Source: Kiritimatiellia bacterium
Lineage (GTDB): Bacteria; Verrucomicrobiota; Kiritimatiellia; RFP12; UBA1067
DNA length: 64,000 nt
Assembly (NCBI GenBank): GCA_034003585.1
Contig: JAVEYH010000003.1
Location: 13,523-77,522 of the forward strand
Direction: 5' to 3'
Positions 22,004 to 54,818 of this stretch are shown here, piece by piece. Positions within the stretch are counted from its first letter, which is position 1. Each line of letters begins with the position of its first letter. The position numbers were made by a program, and so were the translations under genes. The notes beneath the pieces were generated by a model. The model ran no database searches. It was not told the DNA's origin and saw only the letters and a program-made list of their open reading frames with translations.

Positions 22004-22554
22004 GAAACGCGCAACACGCAACACGCAACGCACCACGCGCCACGTCTCTGTTCCCGGAGCCGTTTGACGCCGGCTGGGCACGGACCGCGTTTTCCCTCCT
22101 TCTGTTTTGTCTCGCCGCCCTGCCGGCGAGCGCCGCGCGCGACCCCTTCTGGCCCATCGGCTACGAACCGCCGAAACCCGAACCCGCGGTCAAAGAAACC
22201 CGCGAAGTGCCGAAAAAGGCACCGCCGCAACCCGTATCGGCCAAACCAGCCCCTCCCCGGCCCAAACCCCCGGCCGTGAAACCCGTGACCGACGGGGATT
22301 GGGCCGACGCGCGCGCCCTCATCACCGTCACGGGGTTCACCCGCGCGACACGCCCCGACACGGGCGAGACCCGCGCCCTGGCCCTGATCAACCGCCACTC
22401 CTACGCTCCCGGCGACACCCTCTGCCTCACCAACGCCGGCATCGCCTTCCTCTGGCGCATCGATTCCCTTGACAACCGTGAGCTGAAACTGGCGCCGCTC
22501 CAAGCCTCCCGGATCGCCCCGCCCGGCGCGGGCCCCTCCGGAAGCGCGCCCTGA
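22000..22554 (+). CDS. pilP: PilP-like lipoprotein
   Basis: Signal peptide, Pro/Lys-rich linker and a C-terminal beta domain (ALITVTGFTRATRPDTGETRALALINRHSYAPGDTL). ATGA overlap with pilO. Confidence 0.55.
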   Translation: MRNAQHATRNAPRATSLFPEPFDAGWARTAFSLLLFCLAALPASAARDPFWPIGYEPPKPEPAVKETREVPKKAPPQPVSAKPAPPRPKPPAVKPVTDGDWADARALITVTGFTRATRPDTGETRALALINRHSYAPGDTLCLTNAGIAFLWRIDSLDNRELKLAPLQASRIAPPGAGPSGSAP

Positions 22555-40504: not shown

Positions 40505-41731
40505 ATGACCGACACTCTCCGCATCACCGACCTCACCGGCCACAAAACCGTCCGGCAGGCGTTCCGGAACGGCGCGCTGCAAGTCATCTCCCGCTCCGGA
40601 CTGCACGCCGCCGAAAAGATGCTGCTCGACCATCTCGGGCGCCTCGCGCCTTTCCCCGCGCGCCTACTGGTCGCGGGCAACCGCACCGGCGCGGCGGCCA
40701 TGGCGGCCGCCCTGCATTTCCCGGGATGCGCCGTCACCTGCCATGCCTTCGACCTGCATCACGCGCGGGCCATCGCGCGCAATCTGACGGCCAACGCGTT
40801 TTCCTGCCGCTTCCGTTGCGACCCCTGCGTCACGGTACCGGATGCGGTGTGCGTCCCGGCCGGAAGCGGCAACGGCGGCGCCCCGGTTTCCCTCGCCTGC
40901 ACCGCGTCCCTGCCGGACGGCCCCTTTGACGCCGCGCTCTTCATGGCCACGCCGGGGAGCACCACCGGCGAGCTGCTGCTCGATCAGCTTGAGGACCTCC
41001 ACCGCGTCCTCGCTCCCGGCGGGGTCTGCCTCGCAGCCTGTGAAACCGATGTGCCGGCCCTGCTCAAACAGGTCAAGCGCACGTTCGGCCCCCCCACGGT
41101 CCATTTCCATCGCGGCCCGCTCTGCTGTCTCAGCGCGCGCAAGCGCGGCGCGCTCGCGGACCCGCGCGACTTCACCGCGCCGTTCGCGGCCTCCCTTCCC
41201 GGAGGGGTCTCCCTCACGCTTTGCTCGCTGCCGGGGGTCTTCTGCCACCGCCGCCCCGACACAGGGGGCCTCGCGCTCGCCGAAGTCGCGGTGCGCGATC
41301 TCAGGCCCGGCGCGCGCGTGCTGGACATGGGGTGCGGATGTGGTCTGGTCGGCCTCCTGCTGGCCGCGAGCCTGCCGGACGTACGGGTCACGTTCGTGGA
41401 TTCCCACAGCCGCGCCCTGGCCGCGACACGCCGCAACCTGGACGGCCTCGGCCTCGCCGCGGAGAGTCTGGTGCTCTCCGATTCGGGTCTGAGCGCAACC
41501 GGAATCGACCTGTTCGCCGGCAATCCGCCCTACTACTCCGATTTCCGCATCGCCGACTGCTTTCTCCGAACCGCCCGCGCGGTCCTCGCGCCCGGAGGCG
41601 TGTGCCTCACTGTCGCCAAAACGGCCCGCGCGCTTGCGGAACGGCAGCGCGAGCTGTTCGGGGAAGCCGAAATCCTGCCGCGCCGCGGGTACGGCGTGGT
41701 CCGGAGTGTCCAAAAAGGAGAACCGTCATGA
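40505..41731 (+). CDS. RsmC/RlmG-like rRNA (guanine-N2) methyltransferase (tandem MTase-fold domains)
   Basis: SAM motif VLDMGCGCGLVGLL and catalytic motif GNPPYY in the C-terminal domain. The N-terminal domain is a degenerate MTase-like fold. Confidence 0.7.
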   Translation: MTDTLRITDLTGHKTVRQAFRNGALQVISRSGLHAAEKMLLDHLGRLAPFPARLLVAGNRTGAAAMAAALHFPGCAVTCHAFDLHHARAIARNLTANAFSCRFRCDPCVTVPDAVCVPAGSGNGGAPVSLACTASLPDGPFDAALFMATPGSTTGELLLDQLEDLHRVLAPGGVCLAACETDVPALLKQVKRTFGPPTVHFHRGPLCCLSARKRGALADPRDFTAPFAASLPGGVSLTLCSLPGVFCHRRPDTGGLALAEVAVRDLRPGARVLDMGCGCGLVGLLLAASLPDVRVTFVDSHSRALAATRRNLDGLGLAAESLVLSDSGLSATGIDLFAGNPPYYSDFRIADCFLRTARAVLAPGGVCLTVAKTARALAERQRELFGEAEILPRRGYGVVRSVQKGEPS

Positions 41732-43101
41732 ACCTGAACCGAAGAGCCTTTCTGCAAAACTCGGTCTGTGCGTCCGCGTCCGCCGTCTGGGGGCGGCATC
41801 CGGCCGACACGCGCCCGCCGGTGACGCCCACCCCCGCCCAGCAGGCCTGGCACGATCTGGAACTGGGCATGTTCTTCCATTTCGACATCCCGGTTTACCG
41901 GCAGGAGTGGAAGTGGCGCAGCTTCACCGATTTTCCGCATCCCAACCTCTATCAGCCCGCCAAACTGGACACGGACCAGTGGATGGAGGCGGCCAAGGCC
42001 ATGGGCGCGCGGTACGCCATCTTCGTGGCCAAACACTGTAGCGGGTTCCTGCAATGGCAGTCGGATCTGTATCCCTACGGTGTCCGGCAATCCTCGTGGG
42101 AAGGCGGCAAAGGCGATGTGGTGCGCCGGTTCACGGACTCCTGCCGGCGGTACGGCATCCGTCCGGGACTTTATGCCTCGGTCTCCGCCAACGGGTATCT
42201 GGGCGTGGACAACCCCGGCCTCGTGAACCGCGGCAAAGGCGGGGATGACGCGGCCCAGGCGCGCTACGTGGCGACCTGCGAGCGGATGATGACCGAGCTC
42301 TGGACGCGCTACGGCGACCTGTTCGAGATCTGGTTCGACGGCGGCGCCATCCCGGCCGCCAAGGGCGGGCCGGATCTGGTGCCGATCCTCAAACGGCACC
42401 AACCCAACGCCATCGTTTTCCAGGGCCCGGTCGGCACGCCGAACCTGATCCGGTGGGTCGGCAACGAACGGGGTGTCGCGCCCTACCCCTGCTGGAGCAC
42501 GGCCCATGCGGGCACGGGCGAGGGCGGCACGGTCGAGAAGGTTTTCGGCGGCCACCCCGACGGCAACCTCTGGGTTCCCGGCGAATGCGACGTGCCGGTG
42601 CGCAACCACGACTGGTTCTGGAAACCGGGAGGCGAGAAACGGCTCTACGCCGATGCGCACCTCATCGAGATGTACTACAACTCTGTGGGACGCAACTGTA
42701 ATCTGCTGCTGAACGCCAACCCGGGCCCGGACGGACTGGTCCCGGAGGCGGACTTCCAGAAGTATGTGGCCTTCGGCAAAGAGATCCGCCGCCGCTTTGA
42801 CCGGCCGGCCGCCGAAACCCGCGGCGCGGGCACACTCGTCACCCTGACGCTGCCCCGGCCGCAACCCGTGAATCATGTGATGCTCATGGAGGAAATCAGC
42901 CGCGGGGAACGGATCCGCGCCTACCGTGTGGCAGGCCAGGCTCCCGGCGGCGCCTGGCAACCGCTCTGCACCGGCATCTCCGTGGGCCACAAGCGCATTC
43001 AGACCTTTGAACGGGCCGTCGTGTCCGGCATCCGCCTGCATGTGACCGAAACGGTCGGCGAGCCTCTGATCCGCCGCCTGGCCGTTTTCGACGTGACCTG
43101 A
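41728..43101 (+). CDS. alpha-L-fucosidase (GH29) with TAT signal and C-terminal beta-sandwich domain
   Basis: TAT motif NRRAFLQ. GH29-like core ...YAIFVAKHCSGFLQWQSDLYPYG...EIWFDGG.... ATGA overlap with the upstream gene. Confidence 0.75.
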   Translation: MNLNRRAFLQNSVCASASAVWGRHPADTRPPVTPTPAQQAWHDLELGMFFHFDIPVYRQEWKWRSFTDFPHPNLYQPAKLDTDQWMEAAKAMGARYAIFVAKHCSGFLQWQSDLYPYGVRQSSWEGGKGDVVRRFTDSCRRYGIRPGLYASVSANGYLGVDNPGLVNRGKGGDDAAQARYVATCERMMTELWTRYGDLFEIWFDGGAIPAAKGGPDLVPILKRHQPNAIVFQGPVGTPNLIRWVGNERGVAPYPCWSTAHAGTGEGGTVEKVFGGHPDGNLWVPGECDVPVRNHDWFWKPGGEKRLYADAHLIEMYYNSVGRNCNLLLNANPGPDGLVPEADFQKYVAFGKEIRRRFDRPAAETRGAGTLVTLTLPRPQPVNHVMLMEEISRGERIRAYRVAGQAPGGAWQPLCTGISVGHKRIQTFERAVVSGIRLHVTETVGEPLIRRLAVFDVT

Positions 43102-43261: not shown

Positions 43262-44728
43262 CTACCTGTCACGCCGCATACCGGTTGGCGCGGGATTCAC
43301 CGGCTCCGCCCCGGCACCAAGGTCCGTGAACTCATAAGCGCCGATGTCCGGCGCGGCCCCCGACGGCCGCGGGTTGCCGGTGATGTCAACCGGCGGCGTC
43401 CCGGCGGCGGCGCCCCGGTCACGCGCCGCGGAATCCGCGCGAAGGCGGAAATCGCCGGCGTCCGGGGCGACGAATCCTGCCGCGCCATAGACGTTGTCGC
43501 GCTCCCACGGCCGGCCCGCCCCCGCCGGGACATCGAGCAGGTTGCGCTCGACGCGGACGGCCGGGTCATCCAGAACCATCCGCGGCTGGTCGCCCCACGA
43601 GTTCCGGAAAATGCCGATGTCAAATTCGTCACAGCGGCTGCAGAGGTTGTTCCGGATCACGATGCCGGCGGCGTTCCGGCTCGACAGCTCGATCCCGCGG
43701 CGCGTCCGGTACAGCGTGTTGTGGGTCACGGTGAGATTCGTCATCACCGGATGCCCCGGGCTGCCGTATCCCGCCAGACGGATCCCGAAATGGGTGTTGC
43801 GGATCACGTTATTGAAGATCCGGATGTTCTCGATGACGCCTGCGGTCTCGGAGGCGATGACGATGCCGTTGCCCGTGCCCTGGCCGCCGGGTTCCTCAAA
43901 CGAGGAGAAGATGTCGTGGATGGTGTTTCCGGAAATCTCGATGTCGCGCGCTGTTCCGCGGGCGTCGACATAAATGCCGAGGCTGGTGCGGTGCACATGA
44001 TTGCCGACGATCCGGCCGTGGGAGGAACCGTCTTTCGCGTCGATCCCTTCCTTGCGGTAAAGCCCGCCCCGTTTGCCCGCCAGGCTGGGTAACGTGCTGT
44101 GGACGTAGTTGCTCCGGACCTCAAACGTGTCGGTGTACATCAGCGAGATGCTCTCCTGGCCGCCGCGGGCGCAAACGTTCTGTACCCAGTTGCCGTCGAT
44201 GATGACCTTCGAGCACCGGTAGGTGAGGATTCCGGACGCGCCGGTGTTGGCGATCCGGTTCTTCTCCAGAATGAGATCCTCGCACGAGGCGGCGAAGATG
44301 CCGGCATCGTTCGCGCCCGCCGTGTTGACAATGCTCAGCCCGGAAATCCGGATGTGTTTCTTGTTGCCGATATCCACCAGGCCGAGTATGCCGCCGCGCT
44401 TGGCCAGCGCGACGCCGGTCCCGTCGATGACCACCGAATGCCCGGGATATGCGGTGTAGGTGATCGGTTTGCCCGGCAATCCGGAATGTCCCGGACTCAC
44501 GCGTTCGCAATAGGTGCCCCGCATGATGCGGACCGTGTCCCCGGCGGTCATCGTCGCGGACGCCTTGGCGATCGTCTGCCACGGACTCTGCTCCGTTCCC
44601 GGGTCCGTGTCCCGGCCTTCGGGACTGACGTAGTATTCCGCGGCACGGGCCCCGCCCCACACCGCAAACGCGGCGATGATCCGCCACAGCCCTGATCCCG
44701 TTCCGATGGCCCCGCGTGAACTCCGCAT
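43262..44728 (-). CDS. secreted right-handed parallel beta-helix (pectate-lyase fold) protein
   Basis: Signal peptide, then AEYYVSPEGRDTDPGTEQSPWQTIAKA, followed by PbH1-like repeats. Start at the ATG preceded by AAAAGGGGGGG. Confidence 0.75.
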   Translation of the reverse strand: MRSSRGAIGTGSGLWRIIAAFAVWGGARAAEYYVSPEGRDTDPGTEQSPWQTIAKASATMTAGDTVRIMRGTYCERVSPGHSGLPGKPITYTAYPGHSVVIDGTGVALAKRGGILGLVDIGNKKHIRISGLSIVNTAGANDAGIFAASCEDLILEKNRIANTGASGILTYRCSKVIIDGNWVQNVCARGGQESISLMYTDTFEVRSNYVHSTLPSLAGKRGGLYRKEGIDAKDGSSHGRIVGNHVHRTSLGIYVDARGTARDIEISGNTIHDIFSSFEEPGGQGTGNGIVIASETAGVIENIRIFNNVIRNTHFGIRLAGYGSPGHPVMTNLTVTHNTLYRTRRGIELSSRNAAGIVIRNNLCSRCDEFDIGIFRNSWGDQPRMVLDDPAVRVERNLLDVPAGAGRPWERDNVYGAAGFVAPDAGDFRLRADSAARDRGAAAGTPPVDITGNPRPSGAAPDIGAYEFTDLGAGAEPVNPAPTGMRRDR

Positions 44729-45123
44729 GTCATCCCCCCCTTTTTTGAGGCTTGGCCTCATCCAGATCGCTATCGCCATCGGGTTCAGGATCGCCAGGCG
44801 ATAGACGTCCGGTTTCTCGCCCCCGTCCTTCGTCCTCCGTCCTGACAAGCCAACCACCCCAAATCCTCAAAACCAAACCAAAACTATACCTTATGTGGGT
44901 ACAGTACGAAGGGCGGTTGATCCTGTCAACCCCTTTCACTACGGGTGCAATTCCGGGCATCCCCGTTTCCCTGACTTCCATCAACGGGTCGCGCAGGGAT
45001 GCAGCCATTCAAAGGATGAGGCGATGGGCTTCCCGGGTTCGCAGCGAAGCGTCACACGTTTCCGTACACGGGGAACCGGGCGGAGTCAGGGAGACGGGGA
45101 TGCGTCCCCACACGCTCAGCCTG

Positions 45124-48100
45124 TCACTCGATTGCCCCGCCGTTCTCCGGTTCGGCCGTCGGCAGGGCGGCCCAGCCGCCGCCCAGCGCCTTGTACACGC
45201 GGATCAGATGCTGGGTGATCGCACCCTCGCTGAGCGTCACCGCCTCTTCGAAAGCGAGCAGCGAACGTTGCGCGTCGAGCACGGCGTTGAAGTCGGCCAA
45301 GCCGTTCGCATACCGATTTTGCGCCAGCGCGACCGCGTCGCGCGCCGCGCGGGCCGCCTTGCGCAGCGCCTCGCAGCGCGCGAACTCGCGTCCGTAAGCC
45401 GCCAAAGCGTCGCGCAGCTCGCGCACCGCCTCGAGCACGGTCTGTTCATAGGCCGCCAGCGCCTGCTCCTGCAGCGCGTTCTGCACCTCGATATTGGCGC
45501 GGATCGAGCCGCCGCGGAAAACCGGCCAGACGACCGACGGGCTGATCCCGAAGAAACGGCTTCCGGACTCGAGGAAAGTCCCCTCTTCCAGCGACTCGAG
45601 ACCGACCGAACCGGTCAGCCGGAAGGTCGGGTACCGGTCCGCCTCGGCCACGCCGACACGGGCCGTCTGTGCGGCCAGCCGCCGTTCGGCGGCGCGCACG
45701 TCCGGACGGCGGCGCAACAGGTCGGCCGGAATGCCCAGCACCACGCGCGGCGCGGCGGCGGGGATCGGCGCGGCGGCCGTCAGGGCGGCATCCAGCTCGC
45801 CCGGCATGATGCCGGTCAGCACCGCCAGCGCGTTGCGCGCAGCCTCCTCCTCGCTCAGCAGACCGGGGATCGAGGCGCGCGTGCGCTCCAGGTTGTAGCG
45901 CGCCTGCTCGACGGCCAGCGCGTCACTGATCCCGGCCTTGGCGCGCGAATCCACCAGGTCAAGCGTGTCCGCCTGCACCGCCAGATTGGTGCGGGCGACC
46001 GCCAGCAGCTGGCGCACGGTCTGAAGCTGCGTGTAGGCGCGCGCGGTTTCCGCCGCCACACTAACCCACACGTTTTCCAATGTCGCGACCTGCGCTTCAA
46101 ACTCTGCCTGGGCGGCCTCGATGGCGCGGCGCCGGCGCCCGAAAAGATCGAGCTCCCAGGAGGCGTCGAACCCCGCCGTGTAGAAGTCGCCTTTGCCCGG
46201 CGCACCCGCGTTGTCGCTGTTGCGGAAGCGGCGGTAGGCGCCGGCGGCGTCCACCTCCGGCAGGAGCCCGGCGCGGCTGATGCCCAGCCGGGCGCGCGCC
46301 TCGCGCAGGCTGGCCACGCCGCCCCGCAGCGTGCGGTTGGCGCACAGCGCGCGGCCCACCAACTGGGTCAGCGCCGGATCGCCGAACACGGTCCACCACG
46401 CGGCGGCCTCCGCGCTGTCGATGGCCGCGCCGCCGATGGCCTGCGGCAACGGCGCGGCAGGCGGCGCATTCTCCGGTACCTGATAATCCGGGCCCACGGC
46501 CCGGCAGCCGGCCAGCAGCGTCAGCAGCACCGCCACCGTCGCGGCCGTCTTCGCCGCCGCCGGGTTCGGCCCGCGCCGGACGAGCCGCTTGATCCATTCA
46601 CGCCAGGTCTGGAAGAAAGCGTAGAGGCCGGGCACCAGGATGATGCCGAACACCGTGGCCGCGATCATGCCCGCGAGGGTGGTGACGCCGATCGCGCGCC
46701 GGCTGGCCGCGCCCGCGCCGGTCGCATACACCATCGGCAGCACGCCCAGCACGAAGGTCAGCGCCGTCATCAGCACCGCGCGGTAACGCTGCCCCGCGCC
46801 CTCGGCCGCCGCGGCCACGATGGGCTCGCCCTCTTCGCGCCGCACCTTGGAAAACTCCACGATCAGGATCGCGTTCTTACTGGCCAGCGCGATCAGCAGG
46901 ATCAGGCCGAGCTGCGCGTAGATGCTGAGCGACATCCCCAGCATTCTCAGCCCGAACAGCGCGCCGGCCATGGCCACGAAGATCGAGAACATCACCGGCA
47001 TCGGGATGGTCCAGCTCTCGTACTGCGCCACCAGGAAGAGATAACCGAAAACCAGCGCCGCGATCATGAGCAGCACCGTCTGCCCCGAGGCGCGCTGCTC
47101 CTGAAAACTCAGCCCCGACCATTCGAACGCGTACTGTTTGGGAAGCGTCCGCTTGGCGACCTCGTTGATCCGCGCCATCACCTCGCCGCTGCTGGCGCCC
47201 GGCACAAGCTGCGCCGTGATGCCCGCGCTCGGGAAGAGGTTGTAGCGCGGATAGAGCCGGGGACCGACCTGATTCTCCAGCGAGACCAGACTGCCCAACG
47301 GCACCATGGCGCCGCGCGAGCTGCGTACGTACAGCTTGAGCGCGTCGTCCGGCGTGCGGCGCCCAGCCCAATCCGACTGGATGATCACCTGGTTGACCTG
47401 CGTGTCCAGATTGACGTCGTTCACATAGAGCGAGCCGAAATAGTTCTGCAGGGTGGAGAACACCTTGGCGACCGGCACATCCAGCATCTCGCATTTGAGC
47501 CGGTCCACGTCCATGCGGATCGAGGGGGTCTTGGCCGTGAACCCGCTGAACGCGAAGAGCACGCCCGGCACACGGTTGATCTCACCCAGGAACTGCTGGA
47601 GCACCGCGTCCAGTTTCGCGGGGTCGCTTTCCGTCAGGGCCTGCAGCCGGATATCGAGCCCGGAGTTCGCGCCCAGACCGGGAATGGAAGGCGGCATGAA
47701 GAAGTTCAGCTCCGCCCCGGTGATGGACGCGCTCCGGCCGCGGATCGTGTTCATGATCGCGGCGGCCTGGAGGTCGGGCGCGTGGCGCTCCGCCCAGTGC
47801 GTCAGCCCGATGATCACGAAGCCCACGCTCTCCGCGCGTCCGCCCATCATGCTGAACCCGGTGATCGCCTGCACGAACTGCACGCCGGGCACGTCGCGGG
47901 CGACATCGCTGACCGCGTACATGATCTCTTCGGTCCGCGCCTTGGCCGCGCCTTCCGGCAGCCGCACATCCGCGAAGACCACCCCCTGGTCCTCATCCGG
48001 CAGAAAGGAGGAGGGCGTCTGCTTGAACCACACCCACGTCAGCAGGATCGTGCTGAAAAGCAGCAGGGCCGTCAGGGTCAGGCGACGGGCCAGAAACACG

Positions 48101-49680
48101 GCAAGGGAGACGTACCCCCGCCGGCTGCGGTCGAGCGTCGCGTTGAACCAGCCGAGCGGTCCGCGGCGGTGCATCTTGGGCGGGTTCAGCATGGTCGCGC
48201 AGATCGCGGGACTGAGGGTCAGCGCGTTGAGCGTCGAGAAACAGATCGCGACCGACATGGTCACCGCGAACTGCTGGTACACCTTGCCGGTGATGCCGGG
48301 AATGAACGCCACCGGCACGAAGATCGCGAGCAGCACCAGCGTCGTGGCGATCACGGCGCCGGTCACCTCTTTCATCGTCAGAGAGGTCGCCGCCTTGCGG
48401 TCCATGCCGCGCGTCTCCATCAGGTACTGCACGCGCTCCACCACCACGATCGCGTCATCCACGATCGACCCGATCGCCAGCACCAGGCCGAAGAGCGTCA
48501 GCGTGTTGATGCTGTACCCGAACGCCTTCATCACCGCGAAGGTGGAGAGCAGCGAAACCGGAATCGTGAGCATCGGCACCAGCGTCGCGCGCCAGTCTTG
48601 CAGGAACAGATAGCAGACGAAAACGACCAGCACGAAGGTCAACAGCAGCGTGGAAACGATCTCGCGGATGCTGGACCGCACGAACTTGGTGGCGTCGTAC
48701 GCGGTCAGCATCTCCATGTCCTCCGGCATGCGTTCGCGCAGGCGCGCCAACTCGCGCTGCACGTCGTCCATCGCCTCGATCGCGTTGCTGCCGGGTTTCT
48801 GCGCGACCGCGATCGACACGGAATCCGCGCCGTTGTAAATGCTGCTGAACCCGTAATTGCTTTCACCCAGCTCAATCTTCGCCACATCCTTGAGCCGGAC
48901 CACGCCGCCCTGTTCTTCGGTGCGGACGACGATCTCGCGGAACTCTTCCGGCTCGTTCAGCCGGCCCTGCGTCTGGAGCGTCAGGACCCGCTTGATCTCG
49001 CCGGGATTGGGCGACACGCCGGCCGAGCCCAGGGCCGCCTGGACGTTCTGACTCTGGATGGCCTGGACCACCGCATCGACGCCCAGGCCCAGCGCGGCCA
49101 GACGTTCGGCGTCGAGCCACACGCGCATGCTGCGCTTGGGCCCGTAGACCGTGGCGTCGCCCACGCCCGGCACGCGCGCGAGCACATTCCGGATGTGGTT
49201 GTAGATATAGTCCGAGAGCGCCAGCCGGTCGAAGGTCCCGTTGGGTGAACGCAGCGTCAGGAAGCCCAGCATGTCCGAAGAGCGCGTGTACACCGAGACG
49301 CCCTGCTTGGTGACCTCTTCCGGCAGCCGCGGCGTGGCCTGCTGCACGCGGTTCTGGACCTTGACCATGTCGAGGTCCAGATTGGTCCCGATCTCAAAGG
49401 TCACCGTCAGGTTGTAGTTGCCGGAATCGTCGCAGTCCGAGGCCATGTACAGCATGTCATCCACGCCGTTGATCTCCTCCTCAAGCGGGATCGCGACCGT
49501 GTTGGCCAGATCGCGCGCGTTGGCCCCCGGGTACCGGGCCCGCACCGAAACCTGGGGCGGCGTCACCTGGGGATACTGCGTGATCGGCAGGGTTTTGACC
49601 GCCAACGCCCCGGCAAGGGTCAGCACGATCGAGATGACCAGCGCGAACCGGGGGCGTTCGATAAAGACATCCGAGATCAT
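45124..49680 (-). CDS. RND multidrug efflux permease (AcrB/MexB-like, approx. 1040 aa) fused in-frame to an outer-membrane factor lipoprotein (OprM/NodT-like, approx. 470 aa)
   Basis: Full 12-TM AcrB architecture, then ...[46 protein letters not shown] (lipobox LAGC), then an OMF region. No stop codon separates them and no in-frame ATG/GTG/TTG start lies near the OMF signal peptide. Confidence 0.8.
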
Positions 49681-50888
49681 TTCCGGGGGGCCTCCTTCGC
49701 CGCCGCGACCTTCACCGGCTGTCCGGGAATCACCTTTTGAACGCCTTGCACCACCACGCGCTCTCCCGGCTTGACACCAGACCGCACCGCGACGCGCCCG
49801 TCCGCCATCGCGCCGGTGGAGACGGGACGGCGCTGCGCGACCTCGGCATCATCGACCACATAGACAAAGCTTCCCTCGCGGTCGGTCAGCAGCGCCTCCT
49901 GCGGCACCACCGGGAGCTTCGGCGCGTCGGCGAGATCGACCAGCACGGTCACATACCCGTCCGGCACCAGCAGCCCCCGCGCGTTGGGAAACCGCGCGCG
50001 CACCGACAGGGTCGCCGTATCGGCCGACATCGTGTTGTCCTCGAAATCGCGCGCGCCGACCGTGTCCGACACGGTGCCGGTGGGCAGGCGGTACCGGATG
50101 CGCAGCGCATCCCGCACCCGTTCCGTGCCGTGCCGCTCGATCGCCCGGAGATAGTCCTTGTCGGTCACCGAAAAGGCCACGCGGATGGGGTCCGTCTGCA
50201 CGATCCGCACCAGCGGCCCCAGCGACGGCGCGACGTAATCGCCCACGTTGGCGACGGTCCGGCCGATGCGCCCGCCGATCGGGGCGGTCATCCGCGTGTG
50301 CTTGAGGTCGATTTCCGCCAGCGCCAGATTCGCCACCGCCTGCTTCACCGCCGCGCGTCCCTGCGCCACATCGCTGCGCGCGGTGTCGAGGTCCGTCTGG
50401 GTGATGGCGCGCGCGTCCGACTGCTCCAGCCGCCGCAGATAACGCTCGGCCCGGTCGAGCGCCGCTTCGGCCTGACCGATTTCCGCCTTGCGCACCGCAA
50501 CCCGCGCCTCGTACTGCTCCGGATCGATGGTGAAGAGCAGATCACCGGCCCGGACCAGCGCCCCCTCCCTGAAATGCACCTGCTTGACATATCCGTCGAT
50601 CTGCGCGCGCAACTCGACATCCTGGATCGGCTCGACCCGTCCGATATAGGCTTCGGGCGGATTCAGCGCGGCCTCCCCCACTGTCCGGACCTCCACCGGC
50701 GGCGGCCCGCCTGCCCCGCCCATCATCGCCGCCATCGGCGGCGGTCCGCCCGCCGGCTTCTGCGGCGCCAGCGCGCGCGCCATCCACCCCAGCCACACCA
50801 GACAGACGGCGGTCACCCCCCACCCCAGGACCTTGACCGCGGGATGTTCCCGCTTTTCCGCTTTCGCTTTCTCCAACTCTTCGCTCAT
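49677..50888 (-). CDS. RND efflux periplasmic adaptor (membrane fusion protein, AcrA/MexA family)
   Basis: N-terminal TM anchor and an HlyD/biotinyl-lipoyl-like fold. Its stop overlaps the RND start (ATGA). Confidence 0.85.
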
Positions 50889-50918: not shown

Positions 50919-51536
50919 TCACGTTCTCACACGATTCCAAACCGCCTCGAACCCCAACCGGAGCGCGCGCTCCAAGTCCGTTTCCAGACAATGCGCGATC
51001 TCCTGCTCCACCAGCCCCAGCCAGATCACCATCACGACCGACGACACCGCCGCCAGATCCGTGTCGGGACGGACCGCCCCTACGCTTCGCATGCCCTCCA
51101 GCGCCGAAAAGACGATGGCGTACGGCATGGTCGACATCCGGCGTATCCGCTGATGCACCGGCACGAACTGGGAGGAGGACCAGTCAAGCCGCCTCACCAT
51201 CAGAAAAAAACGGCGGTGAGTCGGCGAATCCACAATCAGACGCGCGCGCCGCACAAAGTAGTCCGTCAGCGCCTCCAGCGAATCCAACGAGGCCGGATGC
51301 GACAGCGTGCTCGCCAACTGGGCGGTGTGCCGCTCCGTCATGAACACGACCAGTTCCGCGAGCAGTTCCGGCTTGTTCTTGAAATGCCAATAAACCGCGC
51401 CCTTGGTCAGGCCGATGTGCCGCGCCACGTCATCGAACGTCGTCCGCTCATACCCGGCCTCCACAAACAGCTTGAGCGCGGCCTTCAAAATCCGGCGGCG
51501 CGTTTTCTCTGCCTCTGCCTTGGTTTTCCGCGCCAT
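50919..51536 (-). CDS. TetR/AcrR-family transcriptional regulator
   Basis: HTH region ...KTRRRILKAALKLFVEAGYERTTFDDVARHIGLTKGAVYWHFKNK. Start chosen at MARKTKAEAEK. Confidence 0.85.
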   Translation of the reverse strand: MARKTKAEAEKTRRRILKAALKLFVEAGYERTTFDDVARHIGLTKGAVYWHFKNKPELLAELVVFMTERHTAQLASTLSHPASLDSLEALTDYFVRRARLIVDSPTHRRFFLMVRRLDWSSSQFVPVHQRIRRMSTMPYAIVFSALEGMRSVGAVRPDTDLAAVSSVVMVIWLGLVEQEIAHCLETDLERALRLGFEAVWNRVRT

Positions 51537-51572: not shown

Positions 51573-51592
51573 CATACCTACGGGTAGGTATG
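51573..51592. promoter_or_regulatory. perfect 9-2-9 palindrome CATACCTAC-GG-GTAGGTATG, candidate TetR operator about 37 bp upstream of the tetR-family gene start
   Basis: Read directly. Confidence 0.55.
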
Positions 51593-51816: not shown

Positions 51817-54639
51817 CTACCGCATCATCGCGCCCAGTCGCATGGCGTGCTCCAGCCACGCCCGGCTGTCGCCTTTTCCGGCCAGCGCGATCACATGCGC
51901 CGGCTGCCGCAGCGTGAAGCGCTCGCCCGGCGCGACCGTGACCGCCTCTTTCCACTCCAGCCGCGCGTCCGGATGCTGCCCACCCTGCGGGTCGAACCAG
52001 AAGGCAACGTCCACGCCCCCCGTCAGCGGCGCGACTGCCCCAAAATAACGGCCGCCCTCCGCCTCCATCCAACACCCCGAAGGCGGCATGCCCCACAAGT
52101 TGGGCGGCAATTCCTCCGGCGTCTTGCGGAATGCGTTGTAGAGGCGGAAATAGAAGCCCTTCACCCGCAAAGGGTGTTCCCCCGCGTTGCGCGCGCTGAC
52201 CGCCTCCGCGACAAACCACGGCACGCCCGGCGGCAGATAGAGCCGATGCGTGATCTCCATACGGTCGCTGCCGTGCGACCCTTCGCCGGTAATGTCGATC
52301 ACGGCGACCCCCTCCTCTACCCGGCCCTCCACCGCACGCACGGTGTGGATGTCGTTCCAGCGGAATTGTCCGCCCGCATCGAGCGTCTGCAGCATGGCCG
52401 TGTAACAGCCGAGCGAAGGCTCGGCATCGTCCAGTGTCACGCGCTCGACCATCCGCCGACCGCCCACGCGGCCGGTCAGCACGATGCGCCCGTTCGTCGC
52501 GCGGAATCTTTCGCCCGCGCGCGTGAACGTTGCGGGAGCCTCTCCGGCACGGCCGCGGCGCGCCACCTGCAGCGGGGATGACGGCGGCGTGCGCACGAGC
52601 GCTCGGGGCGCAGGCACCGGACGGCAGCGCCACGCCGCCACCTCGCGGTGCAGTTCTTCGAACATGGCGGTGATCAGCGGATGCGGCACGTCCTCCTCGG
52701 TGACAAGCCCGTAGTTGGAATCCTCCGGGAACGGCGTGCTGATGCCCAGCGCGGGCTGGTCCACCCACATGAAATAATCATACCCCAGCAGGAACGGCTG
52801 GCTCAGCATCGTGCGCGCGAAAAGGCTCGTCGCCTGCGTGCGCTCGGCCTGCGTGCGGAAACGCTGCCCCGCGCCATGCACGCTCGGCACCCCGGCATCG
52901 AGCGCGGGGAACGACCATTCGGTGATCAGCATCGGACGCCGGACATAGTCATAAAACCGTTGGAAATGCTCGGGAACCGGTTCGCCCCCCTGACCCAGAT
53001 ACGTGTAGACGCGTCCCTCGTCCAGATCCGCCATCGGGTAGACGTTGAAGGTCACAACGTCGCAGAAGGTGCCTGAAACCTTCCACACCTCCGGATGCGC
53101 GCCGCCCGTACCGGCAAAGCGCGCGCCCAGCACCAGATGGTTCGGGTCGACCGCGCGGATGGCGCGCGCCGTAACCGAAAAATAGCGCTCCGCCGCATGC
53201 ACCAGAAACGCCAGCTTCGCCGCGCGCGCCTCATCGGTCGCGTGCGGCAGCCGCTCAAGGACGAGCAGTTCGTCAAAGTTTTTCGCCTGCGTGCCGAACG
53301 CAGCGTTGAACGCCGCGATCTTCCCGCCGAAGCGCGCAGACATCAAGGCTATCAGCGCGCGCTTGGCCGTATGTTCCGGACCTTTTTTCATCACGGCGTC
53401 AAAAAGACCGGTGTCCGACGCGCCCCGCCCCCACCACGCCAGTTCGTTGTCGATGAAATAGCCGAACAGCCAAGGGTCATCGCGGTACGGCTGGCAGCGC
53501 GTCCGCGCCACATACCGGCAGTAGGCTTCGAAGTCCGGATGAAAGACATTCGGGAAGGCCGAGCACGGCCGCCGCTCGTTCGGCGTGATCTCGTACTCGT
53601 CGCCCAGCGTCGCAAGATGCGAGCCGATGTTGAGGAACTCGGTGTGCACCAGTCCGCGGTGCTTGAGCCCCGACGAACAGCCCGCACCGAGCATGTTGAA
53701 GCCCCACTTTTTCAGGCGGCCCAGCGTCTCGCGCTCCCACTCGGCCTGATCGGCATACTTCTCCTTGTTTTTGCGGCCGTAGGGCGCATAGCCGAGCTTT
53801 TCACACCAATGGCCATGATAGGAAACGTGATCCACGCCCAGCAGCACCAGGCCGCGACCCAGCGGATCGATCGTCCACCAGCGTCCGTCCGGCTTCTTGA
53901 CCACGCGGAAAAACCCGGTCGCCTCGTCCCGCACTTCCGACACGCCGTTCGCCACGTCAAAAGCCGGCACGCTCTGCTGTGCCGCGGCCTGTTCAGTGGC
54001 GGGCTGCGCCCACGCCGCGCGCACCGCGCTGTAAGTGCCAGTGATCCCTGACACGCGAAGCGCGGGGCGTCCGGACCGGACCGCCGCGGCTGTGAAGGTA
54101 AAGCGCCGACGCAGGATCAACCGCCCGTCGGGCGCGAGGATCGTGCCGGTGACGCCGCCCGCATCCATGCTGAGTGTCAGGCGATGGGGCTGTCCGAACG
54201 TCCACGGCACCGCCGGTGCCTCATTGATCTCCATCTTCAGATTGTGCTGCGCCAGCCACTCACCGTCACGCATTTCGCACAGCTCCACCATCTGGCGCAA
54301 ACCGTTTTCCGGCGGCATCTGCACCAGCGCCAGATGCCAGAAATTCTCAGAGTCCGCCATGATCGCTACTGCGGCGACATTCCAGCCGAGGCTCTGCGCC
54401 TTTTGCGGCGTGAAAAACGCCTCGACTGTGACGTGGGCGGCGAGCGGTGCCGCCTCATACACAGCGATGCCGTGCCCGTTGGTGGTGGCGCACTCGACCT
54501 GGTCCGGCCGGAAACGCCACACCAACGGATTGCCGAACCACCCCTCGCCGCCGGTCGGCAGCGCCGCCAGCTCCGCGCCTGACGATCCCACGGCCGCCGC
54601 CAGCAACATCATCCATCCCGCCGCGCCTATCTGTCTCAT
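51817..54639 (-). CDS. large secreted glycoside hydrolase-like protein (TIM-barrel GH core with flanking beta-sandwich domains); family not resolved
   Basis: Signal peptide MRQIGAAGWMMLLAAAVGSSGA. The core segment ...FGYFIDNELAWW... looks like a GH5/GH42-type cellulase-like region. Confidence 0.55.
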   Translation of the reverse strand: MRQIGAAGWMMLLAAAVGSSGAELAALPTGGEGWFGNPLVWRFRPDQVECATTNGHGIAVYEAAPLAAHVTVEAFFTPQKAQSLGWNVAAVAIMADSENFWHLALVQMPPENGLRQMVELCEMRDGEWLAQHNLKMEINEAPAVPWTFGQPHRLTLSMDAGGVTGTILAPDGRLILRRRFTFTAAAVRSGRPALRVSGITGTYSAVRAAWAQPATEQAAAQQSVPAFDVANGVSEVRDEATGFFRVVKKPDGRWWTIDPLGRGLVLLGVDHVSYHGHWCEKLGYAPYGRKNKEKYADQAEWERETLGRLKKWGFNMLGAGCSSGLKHRGLVHTEFLNIGSHLATLGDEYEITPNERRPCSAFPNVFHPDFEAYCRYVARTRCQPYRDDPWLFGYFIDNELAWWGRGASDTGLFDAVMKKGPEHTAKRALIALMSARFGGKIAAFNAAFGTQAKNFDELLVLERLPHATDEARAAKLAFLVHAAERYFSVTARAIRAVDPNHLVLGARFAGTGGAHPEVWKVSGTFCDVVTFNVYPMADLDEGRVYTYLGQGGEPVPEHFQRFYDYVRRPMLITEWSFPALDAGVPSVHGAGQRFRTQAERTQATSLFARTMLSQPFLLGYDYFMWVDQPALGISTPFPEDSNYGLVTEEDVPHPLITAMFEELHREVAAWRCRPVPAPRALVRTPPSSPLQVARRGRAGEAPATFTRAGERFRATNGRIVLTGRVGGRRMVERVTLDDAEPSLGCYTAMLQTLDAGGQFRWNDIHTVRAVEGRVEEGVAVIDITGEGSHGSDRMEITHRLYLPPGVPWFVAEAVSARNAGEHPLRVKGFYFRLYNAFRKTPEELPPNLWGMPPSGCWMEAEGGRYFGAVAPLTGGVDVAFWFDPQGGQHPDARLEWKEAVTVAPGERFTLRQPAHVIALAGKGDSRAWLEHAMRLGAMMR

Positions 54640-54818
54640 CGTGTTTCTCGCATGTGACCTTGTTCGTCGATAATCCGTACAACACATGACCGTTTCTCGC
54701 GTTTCGTTTTATCTCATGATTTTTTCATTTTGACAAGGCGAACCATTACAGGCCGGCAAGCTCGGGCTTTTTGCCTTTTCCACACAGGCCCGGCGTGCTA
54801 TGCTGACGCCGATTCGAT

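Follow-up and report, generated by a model that had tools for sequence, protein, structure and literature searches.

The tripartite efflux pumps of the MexEF-OprN and MexAB-OprM type in Pseudomonas aeruginosa have three components, a periplasmic adaptor, a resistance-nodulation-division (RND) permease and an outer-membrane factor (OMF), in the gene order of regulator, adaptor, RND and OMF. Their OMF opens with a lipobox Cys followed by x-VGPDY. The same components, gene order and OMF opening, with OprN as the closest OMF, recur in a stretch of DNA from a Kiritimatiellia bacterium (assembly GCA_034003585.1, contig JAVEYH010000003.1, positions 13,523 to 77,522 of the forward strand), whose 64,000 nucleotides are called the window here. 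Unlike in the P. aeruginosa pumps, the RND and OMF parts in the window are one polypeptide from a single gene, the OMF signal is internal at residues 1027-1059, and the adaptor is anchored by a transmembrane (TM) segment and not lipidated. This gene and the way its product may become two proteins are our subject.

The closest functional analogy appears to be FbcH of Bradyrhizobium japonicum, reportedly a cytochrome b/c1 precursor that is cut at an internal signal peptide. FbcH likewise holds a polytopic inner-membrane protein, an internal signal peptide and an exported partner in one frame, and yields two proteins per gene. It differs in being cut by signal peptidase I with both products at the inner membrane, whereas the window gene has a lipobox and a second product predicted for the outer membrane.

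Natural fusions within the tripartite and RND systems include fused dimeric adaptors such as DSY0927 (PMC4446572) and the fused SecDF of Thermus thermophilus (PMC8277102). Like the window gene, these fuse subunits of fixed stoichiometry. Unlike it, they keep to one compartment and need no cleavage, whereas the window gene joins proteins of two membranes. In the available parts of the two main reviews, the fusions named are limited to adaptor dimers, SecDF and engineered constructs, and a search of the full-text literature, to which the curated notes of TCDB and InterPro do not belong, gave no description of a natural RND-OMF fusion or an internal lipobox. The tripartite pumps are described as three proteins, with the inner- and outer-membrane ones made separately; here one frame encodes the transporter and the lipoprotein channel.

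Architecture of the fused gene

The fused gene and its parts are as follows.

45124..49680, (-): fused RND::OMF open reading frame (ORF), 1518 aa plus stop, with an ATG start and full-length fused homologues
46612..49680, (-): RND permease domain (HAE1, AcrB/MexB-type), residues 1-1023, from ACR_tran, TIGR00915 and alignment to solved pumps
46549..46602, (-): basic cytoplasmic linker R1027-K1044, net charge +5, from the charge in the fused proteins
46507..46548, (-): uncharged hydrophobic segment T1045-G1058, 14 residues, predicted as the h-region of a lipoprotein signal inside the chain; it could also form a 13th membrane helix
46504..46515, (-): lipobox L1056-A1057-G1058-C1059 with the predicted Lgt/LspA site G1058/C1059, from Cys conservation and OMF alignment
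45127..46506, (-): predicted mature OMF of the NodT/OprN type, residues 1059-1518, 460 aa, from TIGR01845, the OprN match and an AlphaFold2 (AF2) model

The RND half is a complete pump. Pfam ACR_tran covers residues 2-1023 at model positions 1-1020 of 1021 (E = 6.6e-299), and TIGR00915 scores 1049.7 bits over its cut-off of 940.35, while the narrower model NF000282 stays at 1189.9 under its cut-off of 1250. It aligns over the full length with the solved pumps, 7cz9_A (E = 4.9e-234), AcrB, MexB and CmeB among them, and gives about 737-749 bits against MexB and AcrB. The proton-relay motifs of TM4 and TM10 are kept, VDDAIVVVE and KNAILIVEF being identical in 7cz9_A, and their relay residues are D407/D408 and K940 in AcrB numbering. 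An HAE1 chain ends shortly after TM12 with both termini in the cytoplasm; here the 12-TM core matches AcrB and MexB end to end and the chain runs 495 residues further, including an extra hydrophobic segment.

The OMF half is equally recognizable. TIGR01845 (outer_NodT) matches residues 1051-1502 at model positions 2-460 of 460 with 347 bits against a cut-off of 210, and OprN is matched by sequence (5iuy_A, E = 8.8e-73) together with OprM, OprJ, CusC and others. An AF2 model of residues 1014-1518 has a mean predicted local distance difference test score (pLDDT) of 76, with most of the OMF body above 85. In structure comparison it matches OprN, OprJ, OprM, CusC, VceC and MtrE with probability 1.00, and its TM-score to OprN is about 0.76, normalised to the target.

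The two halves meet without a stop codon, and the OMF sequence restarts as the mature lipoprotein OMFs do, with C-x-x-VGPDY. The linker R1027-K1044 combines the C-terminal tail of the RND part with what was the n-region of an OMF signal peptide. A lipoprotein precursor has the pattern [LVI][ASTVI][GAS]C behind a basic n-region and a short h-region; the junction has L-A-G-C, a charge of +5 and an uncharged run of 14 residues. The position is not N-terminal, the signal taking residues 1027-1059 of 1518 behind a 12-TM protein. The segment T1045-G1058 is predicted to be helical by AF2 with moderate confidence only.

An earlier note, made from the letters of the window, had described a single 1518-aa ORF with a complete RND pump, then, with no stop, what looked like an intact signal peptide and lipobox, then an OMF domain. 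This description agrees with the ORF, with the family models that match both halves in full length, and with the LAGC motif and the OMF restart read in the sequence. Only the OMF length of about 470 aa needs correction, the predicted mature part being 460 aa from the lipobox Cys at residue 1059 (nt 46504-46506). The fusion is not a chance reading of the frame: each half matches its family in full length and with a high score, and more than 110 homologues keep the arrangement.

Fused and split relatives

Among the 120 matches listed from a search of 5.8 billion proteins, at least 112 are full-length fused homologues, 1491-1527 aa long and 53-92% identical to the window protein. Their source names include Kiritimatiellae and Kiritimatiellales metagenome-assembled genomes (MAGs), Tichowtungia aerotolerans, Pontiellaceae, Desulfobacter latus, D. 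curvatus and D. postgatei. Two finished genomes carry the fused gene: on the T. aerotolerans contig CP047593.1 (3.88 Mb) it shares an operon with TetR and adaptor genes as in the window, and on contig CP115483.1 (5.4 Mb) of Sphingobacterium sp. SYP-B4668 an adaptor gene immediately precedes it. For the window protein itself, an exact-sequence look-up returned no record.

When species-representative genomes were scanned with a junction profile, 80 loci came back, and in 60 of these the frame runs through the junction unbroken. MAGs labelled Kiritimatiellae, Kiritimatiellia or Verrucomicrobia match the junction best, at 83-86%. In the six genomic relatives nearest to the window, the junction shows many substitutions relative to the window but a single 3-nt indel, which keeps the frame. 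Across the fused relatives, the RND parts are 55-94% and the mature OMFs 50-90% identical, and by comparison both halves are under clear constraint.

The earlier note had allowed for either a genuine fusion or an assembly or sequencing error, and had asked for a comparison with orthologous loci. That an error, or a recent inactivating mutation making a pseudogene, joined two genes could be argued from the split versions in close relatives and from the 1-nt change that is enough to fuse them. It is extremely improbable: the fusion recurs down to 53% identity in independent samples, finished genomes, isolates and culture-collection strains such as those of Desulfobacter, and a 3-nt indel between constrained halves is all that changes the length of the junction among the nearest relatives. 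We exclude both error and pseudogene because of the homologues, the frame-keeping relatives, the conserved halves, the motifs and the OMF fold. The genuine fusion thus stands, and its orthologues are conserved while split ones with a stop codon also exist among the relatives.

These fusions are poorly visible in the current annotation. NCBI (RefSeq/GenBank) labels the proteins of about 1500 aa as "efflux RND transporter permease subunit", with one partial copy labelled "efflux transporter outer membrane subunit", while at JGI some carry the two names together. Most annotation thus hides the OMF half from gene-content surveys.

Split operons occur in relatives whose RND is 74-84% identical to the window RND, and their OMFs have normal N-terminal lipoprotein signals. 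These split operons of Kiritimatiellia metagenomes share with the window the same operon and the mature OMF start of C-R/K/S-A/S-VGPDY. They differ by a stop after the RND tail and by an OMF start of its own, placed either behind a spacer of 52-68 nt with a motif like the Shine-Dalgarno (SD) sequence or in a GTGA overlap. In L001 the stop is followed by a 68-nt spacer and the OMF start MKRRGWISVALSVFLAGC|RAVGPDYQ. In L002/L003, from two independent samples, a 52-nt spacer leads to MKFFYCATVVLLLFVVGC|SSVGPDY. In L004 the GTGA overlap leads to VSGKERRVRTGLALLVLFAGC|KAVGPDYQ, and by its sequence this overlap is one nucleotide away from fusion.

The signal peptides of the split OMFs line up with the internal segment of the fused proteins, and their uncharged run is of similar length, 9-20 residues with a median of 13.5. 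In a neighbour-joining tree of the RND halves, the split forms take several separate positions among the fused ones; P0045, a gene that stops at a contig end, is not counted as split. This interchange suggests that both arrangements yield the same functional products.

A separate observation concerns locus L061 (3001-3573), from a MAG labelled Pseudomonadota, which is fused as …GRARRRRRRGGVSMPLLLSIILATFLTGC|AMVGPDY. Its OMF start C-AMVGPDY is most like those of L054 and L056, which are split genes from Desulfobacterales and Desulfobulbia MAGs. The likeness hints at a separate, recent fusion event in L061.

Fusion extends beyond the close family. Searching 1.84 billion cluster representatives with the junction profile gave 58 proteins with E <= 1e-30, and the best 150 matches include about 19 full-length fused clusters (1372-1557 aa) in which the end of the RND part and the beginning of the OMF are quite different. 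The source names of the divergent clusters are Acidobacteriota/Bryobacteraceae, Muribaculaceae, Prevotella and Sphingobacterium. Taken with the close homologues, fusions occur in Kiritimatiellota, Desulfobacterota, Acidobacteriota and Bacteroidota.

Many of these clusters are as far from the window halves as unfused solved proteins are, or farther. By phmmer with the RND half, the unfused solved pumps reach 724-783 bits, where fused clusters stand at 760, 621, 494 and 217; with the OMF half, OprN reaches 249 bits and fused clusters about 100. Hence the architecture looks polyphyletic, having arisen and been lost repeatedly. Both match lists are ranked so as to favour fused proteins, and the claim is limited to repeated interconversion and polyphyly.

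The junction and its probable processing

The junction was compared in a close set of 113 fused proteins, the window protein included. The linker after TM12 has a net charge of +2 to +9 (median +4) in all 113, and the uncharged run after it is 13-22 residues long, median 15. The junction Cys is invariant (113/113), Gly precedes it at -1 in 112, and x-x-VGPDY follows; none of the 113 has Asp at +2. In a 27-sequence junction alignment, A1, the lipobox Gly is the sole position conserved at 90% or more between R64 and C96. Such sparse conservation points to a signal peptide rather than a helix packed on the pump.

The divergent junctions were assessed by direct inspection and profile alignment. 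Cys stands at the lipobox column in 66 of the 78 junction-spanning representatives, and 61 of these 66 have G, S or A just before it at -1. The exceptions without Cys are alignment slips with a Cys nearby, Arg-rich proteins that look like mis-called genes, and three AxA-like proteins. The three, P0136, P0144 and P0178, carry SAKAS|FTVGPDY, SEAA|LWKIGPDY and SANAG|LTIGPDY, respectively, with no junction Cys, which suggests an internal signal peptidase I site instead of a lipobox. A signal-peptidase-type site is thus apparently almost always retained across the fusions.

In alignments with the crystallised mature chains of OprN, OprM and CusC, Cys1059 falls no more than one residue from their Cys1. 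In this OMF class the acylated N-terminal Cys anchors the protein in the outer membrane, and the CusC variants C1S and deltaC1 fail to form the barrel and misfold (PMC4486845). PDB 4y1k, 4k34 and 4k7k, which are cited with this misfolding, are among the structure matches of the AF2 OMF model.

We consider it probable, on comparative grounds, that the product is a polyprotein holding two of the three components of a tripartite RND pump and that canonical Lgt/LspA processing separates them. In AcrB and the RND pumps, TM12 ends in the cytoplasm. The basic linker would stay there by the positive-inside rule, and the hydrophobic segment would insert with its N-terminus in and C-terminus out as an internal export signal, so that the OMF half, 460 aa long, is exported by way of Sec. 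Diacylglycerol would then be put on Cys1059 by Lgt, and signal peptidase II (LspA) would cut between G1058 and C1059.

After the cut, the acylated OMF would pass via Lol to the outer membrane, a route expected from the lack of Asp at +2, and trimerise. The permease, 1058 aa long, would retain the spent signal peptide as a short 13th helix. Both products, with the separate TM-anchored adaptor, would form an ordinary 3:6:3 pump under TetR control. A tripartite system of three separate polypeptides is not what the genes encode directly: adaptor, RND and OMF are encoded together, with RND and OMF in one ORF, and the latter two would be separate proteins only after the cleavage.

The earlier note had named two fates for the internal signal, a 13th TM helix that places the OMF in the periplasm, or cleavage by signal peptidase II. 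Comparison favours the cleavage over the anchor, because of the invariant Cys, the signal-length run, the interchange with the split lipoprotein genes and the alignment of Cys1059 with Cys1.

The anchor would make an uncleaved single chain in which a permanent 13th TM helix tethers the OMF covalently to the inner-membrane pump. The ORF is continuous and conserved, the segment is predicted helical, and in a minority of the proteins the uncharged run of 19-22 residues is long enough for a TM helix. We nonetheless find this chain unlikely. The median run is 15, no positions besides the lipobox are conserved, and a plain anchor needs no invariant Cys with Gly at -1. Moreover, OprM, CusC and CmeC have the residue equivalent to Cys1059 acylated and sunk into the outer membrane, and no spacer sets Cys1059 apart from the inner-membrane segment. 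In the split orthologues, the same OMF is set free as a lipoprotein of its own.

Quite unlikely too is a functional variant, in which the chain is un- or partly cleaved so that the 13th helix joins pump and channel covalently into a single-chain component spanning the envelope, or in which the helix retained after cleavage has gained a function on the pump, for example as a modulator like AcrZ.

Processing may instead go outside the canonical Lgt/LspA route, by signal peptidase I or another protease, or by lipidation with partial cleavage that leaves a mixture. The AxA-like sites that replace the lipobox in the three divergent fused clusters are in line with it, and the action of LspA on so deep an internal signal is an assumption. 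This processing is improbable for the window protein, which has a textbook lipobox and not AxA, as do all 113 proteins of the close set.

Another possibility is that the OMF is translated from an internal start codon and the fusion is only apparent. An in-frame ATG, GTG or TTG indeed stands 12-35 codons before the Cys in 46 of 61 fused loci. A start codon, an SD-like motif and a basic n-region come together in only 4 of the 61, the window not among them, and ribosomes translating the RND part read through anyway as there is no stop codon. An internal start is thus very unlikely, and as a conserved solution we reject it on these 4/61 loci.

Several points weigh against canonical cleavage itself. 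No paper found shows the cleavage experimentally, and we found no documented precedent for LspA acting on a signal about 1030 residues into a 12-TM protein. The AF2 model is silent on the cleaved versus the uncleaved state. One full-length protein among the profile matches, P0257 (1428 aa), matches the junction profile over the RND C-terminal part and has no clear lipobox after it (…GGRAALCLLLAVQRVAQSRAARMEA…); this fusion may have degenerated or be organised in another way. Genes for Lgt, LspA or Lol are not visible in the 64-kb window, nor are further clear lipoproteins, since scanning every ORF of the window for a lipobox gave one spurious match; the split relatives of the same class lead us to infer that Lgt, LspA and Lol are present in the source organism.

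As to the benefit, the fusion may have its selective value in guaranteeing the equimolar synthesis of pump and channel. A near-neutral state may fit equally, in which a 1-nt indel in overlapping RND and OMF genes fuses them and the internal signal keeps the function. Such a state would explain the repeated interconversion of fused and split forms.

If the cleavage is true, signal peptidase II works here on an internal signal, in a natural case that recurs across the phylogeny, and one gene supplies two membranes at a fixed 1:1 stoichiometry. It would then be a useful system for the substrate limits of Lgt and LspA, the co-translational hand-over from membrane insertion to export, and the control of the pump:channel stoichiometry.

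Operon and surroundings

The other elements of the operon are the following.

49677..50888, (-): periplasmic adaptor of the membrane fusion protein (MFP) family, 403 aa, with an N-terminal TM anchor; TIGR01730 at 244 bits
50919..51536, (-): TetR-family regulator with a TetR_N domain and AcrR/MtrR-like matches
51573..51592, no strand: inverted repeat with perfect 9-nt arms, CATACCTAC-nn-GTAGGTATG, close upstream of the TetR gene and a candidate operator for TetR

The adaptor and the regulator are separate genes, as first read, and their family models TIGR01730 and TetR_N bear this out. The adaptor stop overlaps the start of the fused ORF by ATGA, through which the two are translationally coupled, and the TetR gene lies 30 nt upstream of the adaptor gene. 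The adaptor has its N-terminal TM anchor followed by a Pro/Gly/Ala/Met-rich stretch and no lipobox. The OMF would be the sole lipoprotein of the pump if the polyprotein model is right.

For the regulator, the start at 51536, also the one taken in the earlier note, is preferred, with GGGGAGG before it. An alternative upstream ATG at 51575 falls within the inverted repeat, and this overlap also suggests the start at 51536. The repeat itself is a putative TetR operator, a candidate for the control of the whole operon. Promoter and terminator scans of the window stay at the chance level, with 1 found against 0.7 expected and 6 against 5.3, respectively.

No Rfam match was found anywhere in the window. 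On that account, the 96-nt "tRNA-???" that ARAGORN calls at 22155-22250 (-), whose anticodon has two bases (tt), is probably a false positive. Upstream of the operon, a 956-aa ORF at 51817-54687 (-) has no Pfam match. Two further ORFs probably are shadows: a 1498-aa ORF at 44752-49248 (+) would be a high-GC shadow of the fused gene, and a 502-aa ORF at 41533-43041 (-) without Pfam match runs antisense to the alpha-L-fucosidase ORF at 41221-43101 (+).

The operon is flanked by genes for alpha-L-fucosidase and a beta-helix protein. An alpha-L-fucosidase gene lies near the pump operon in the window (the neighbouring genes there being 41221-43101 (+) and 43262-44857 (-)), in the split L001 (6503-7882) and in the Sphingobacterium locus L085 (11800-12566). 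This proximity may be a coincidence in polysaccharide-degrading genomes.

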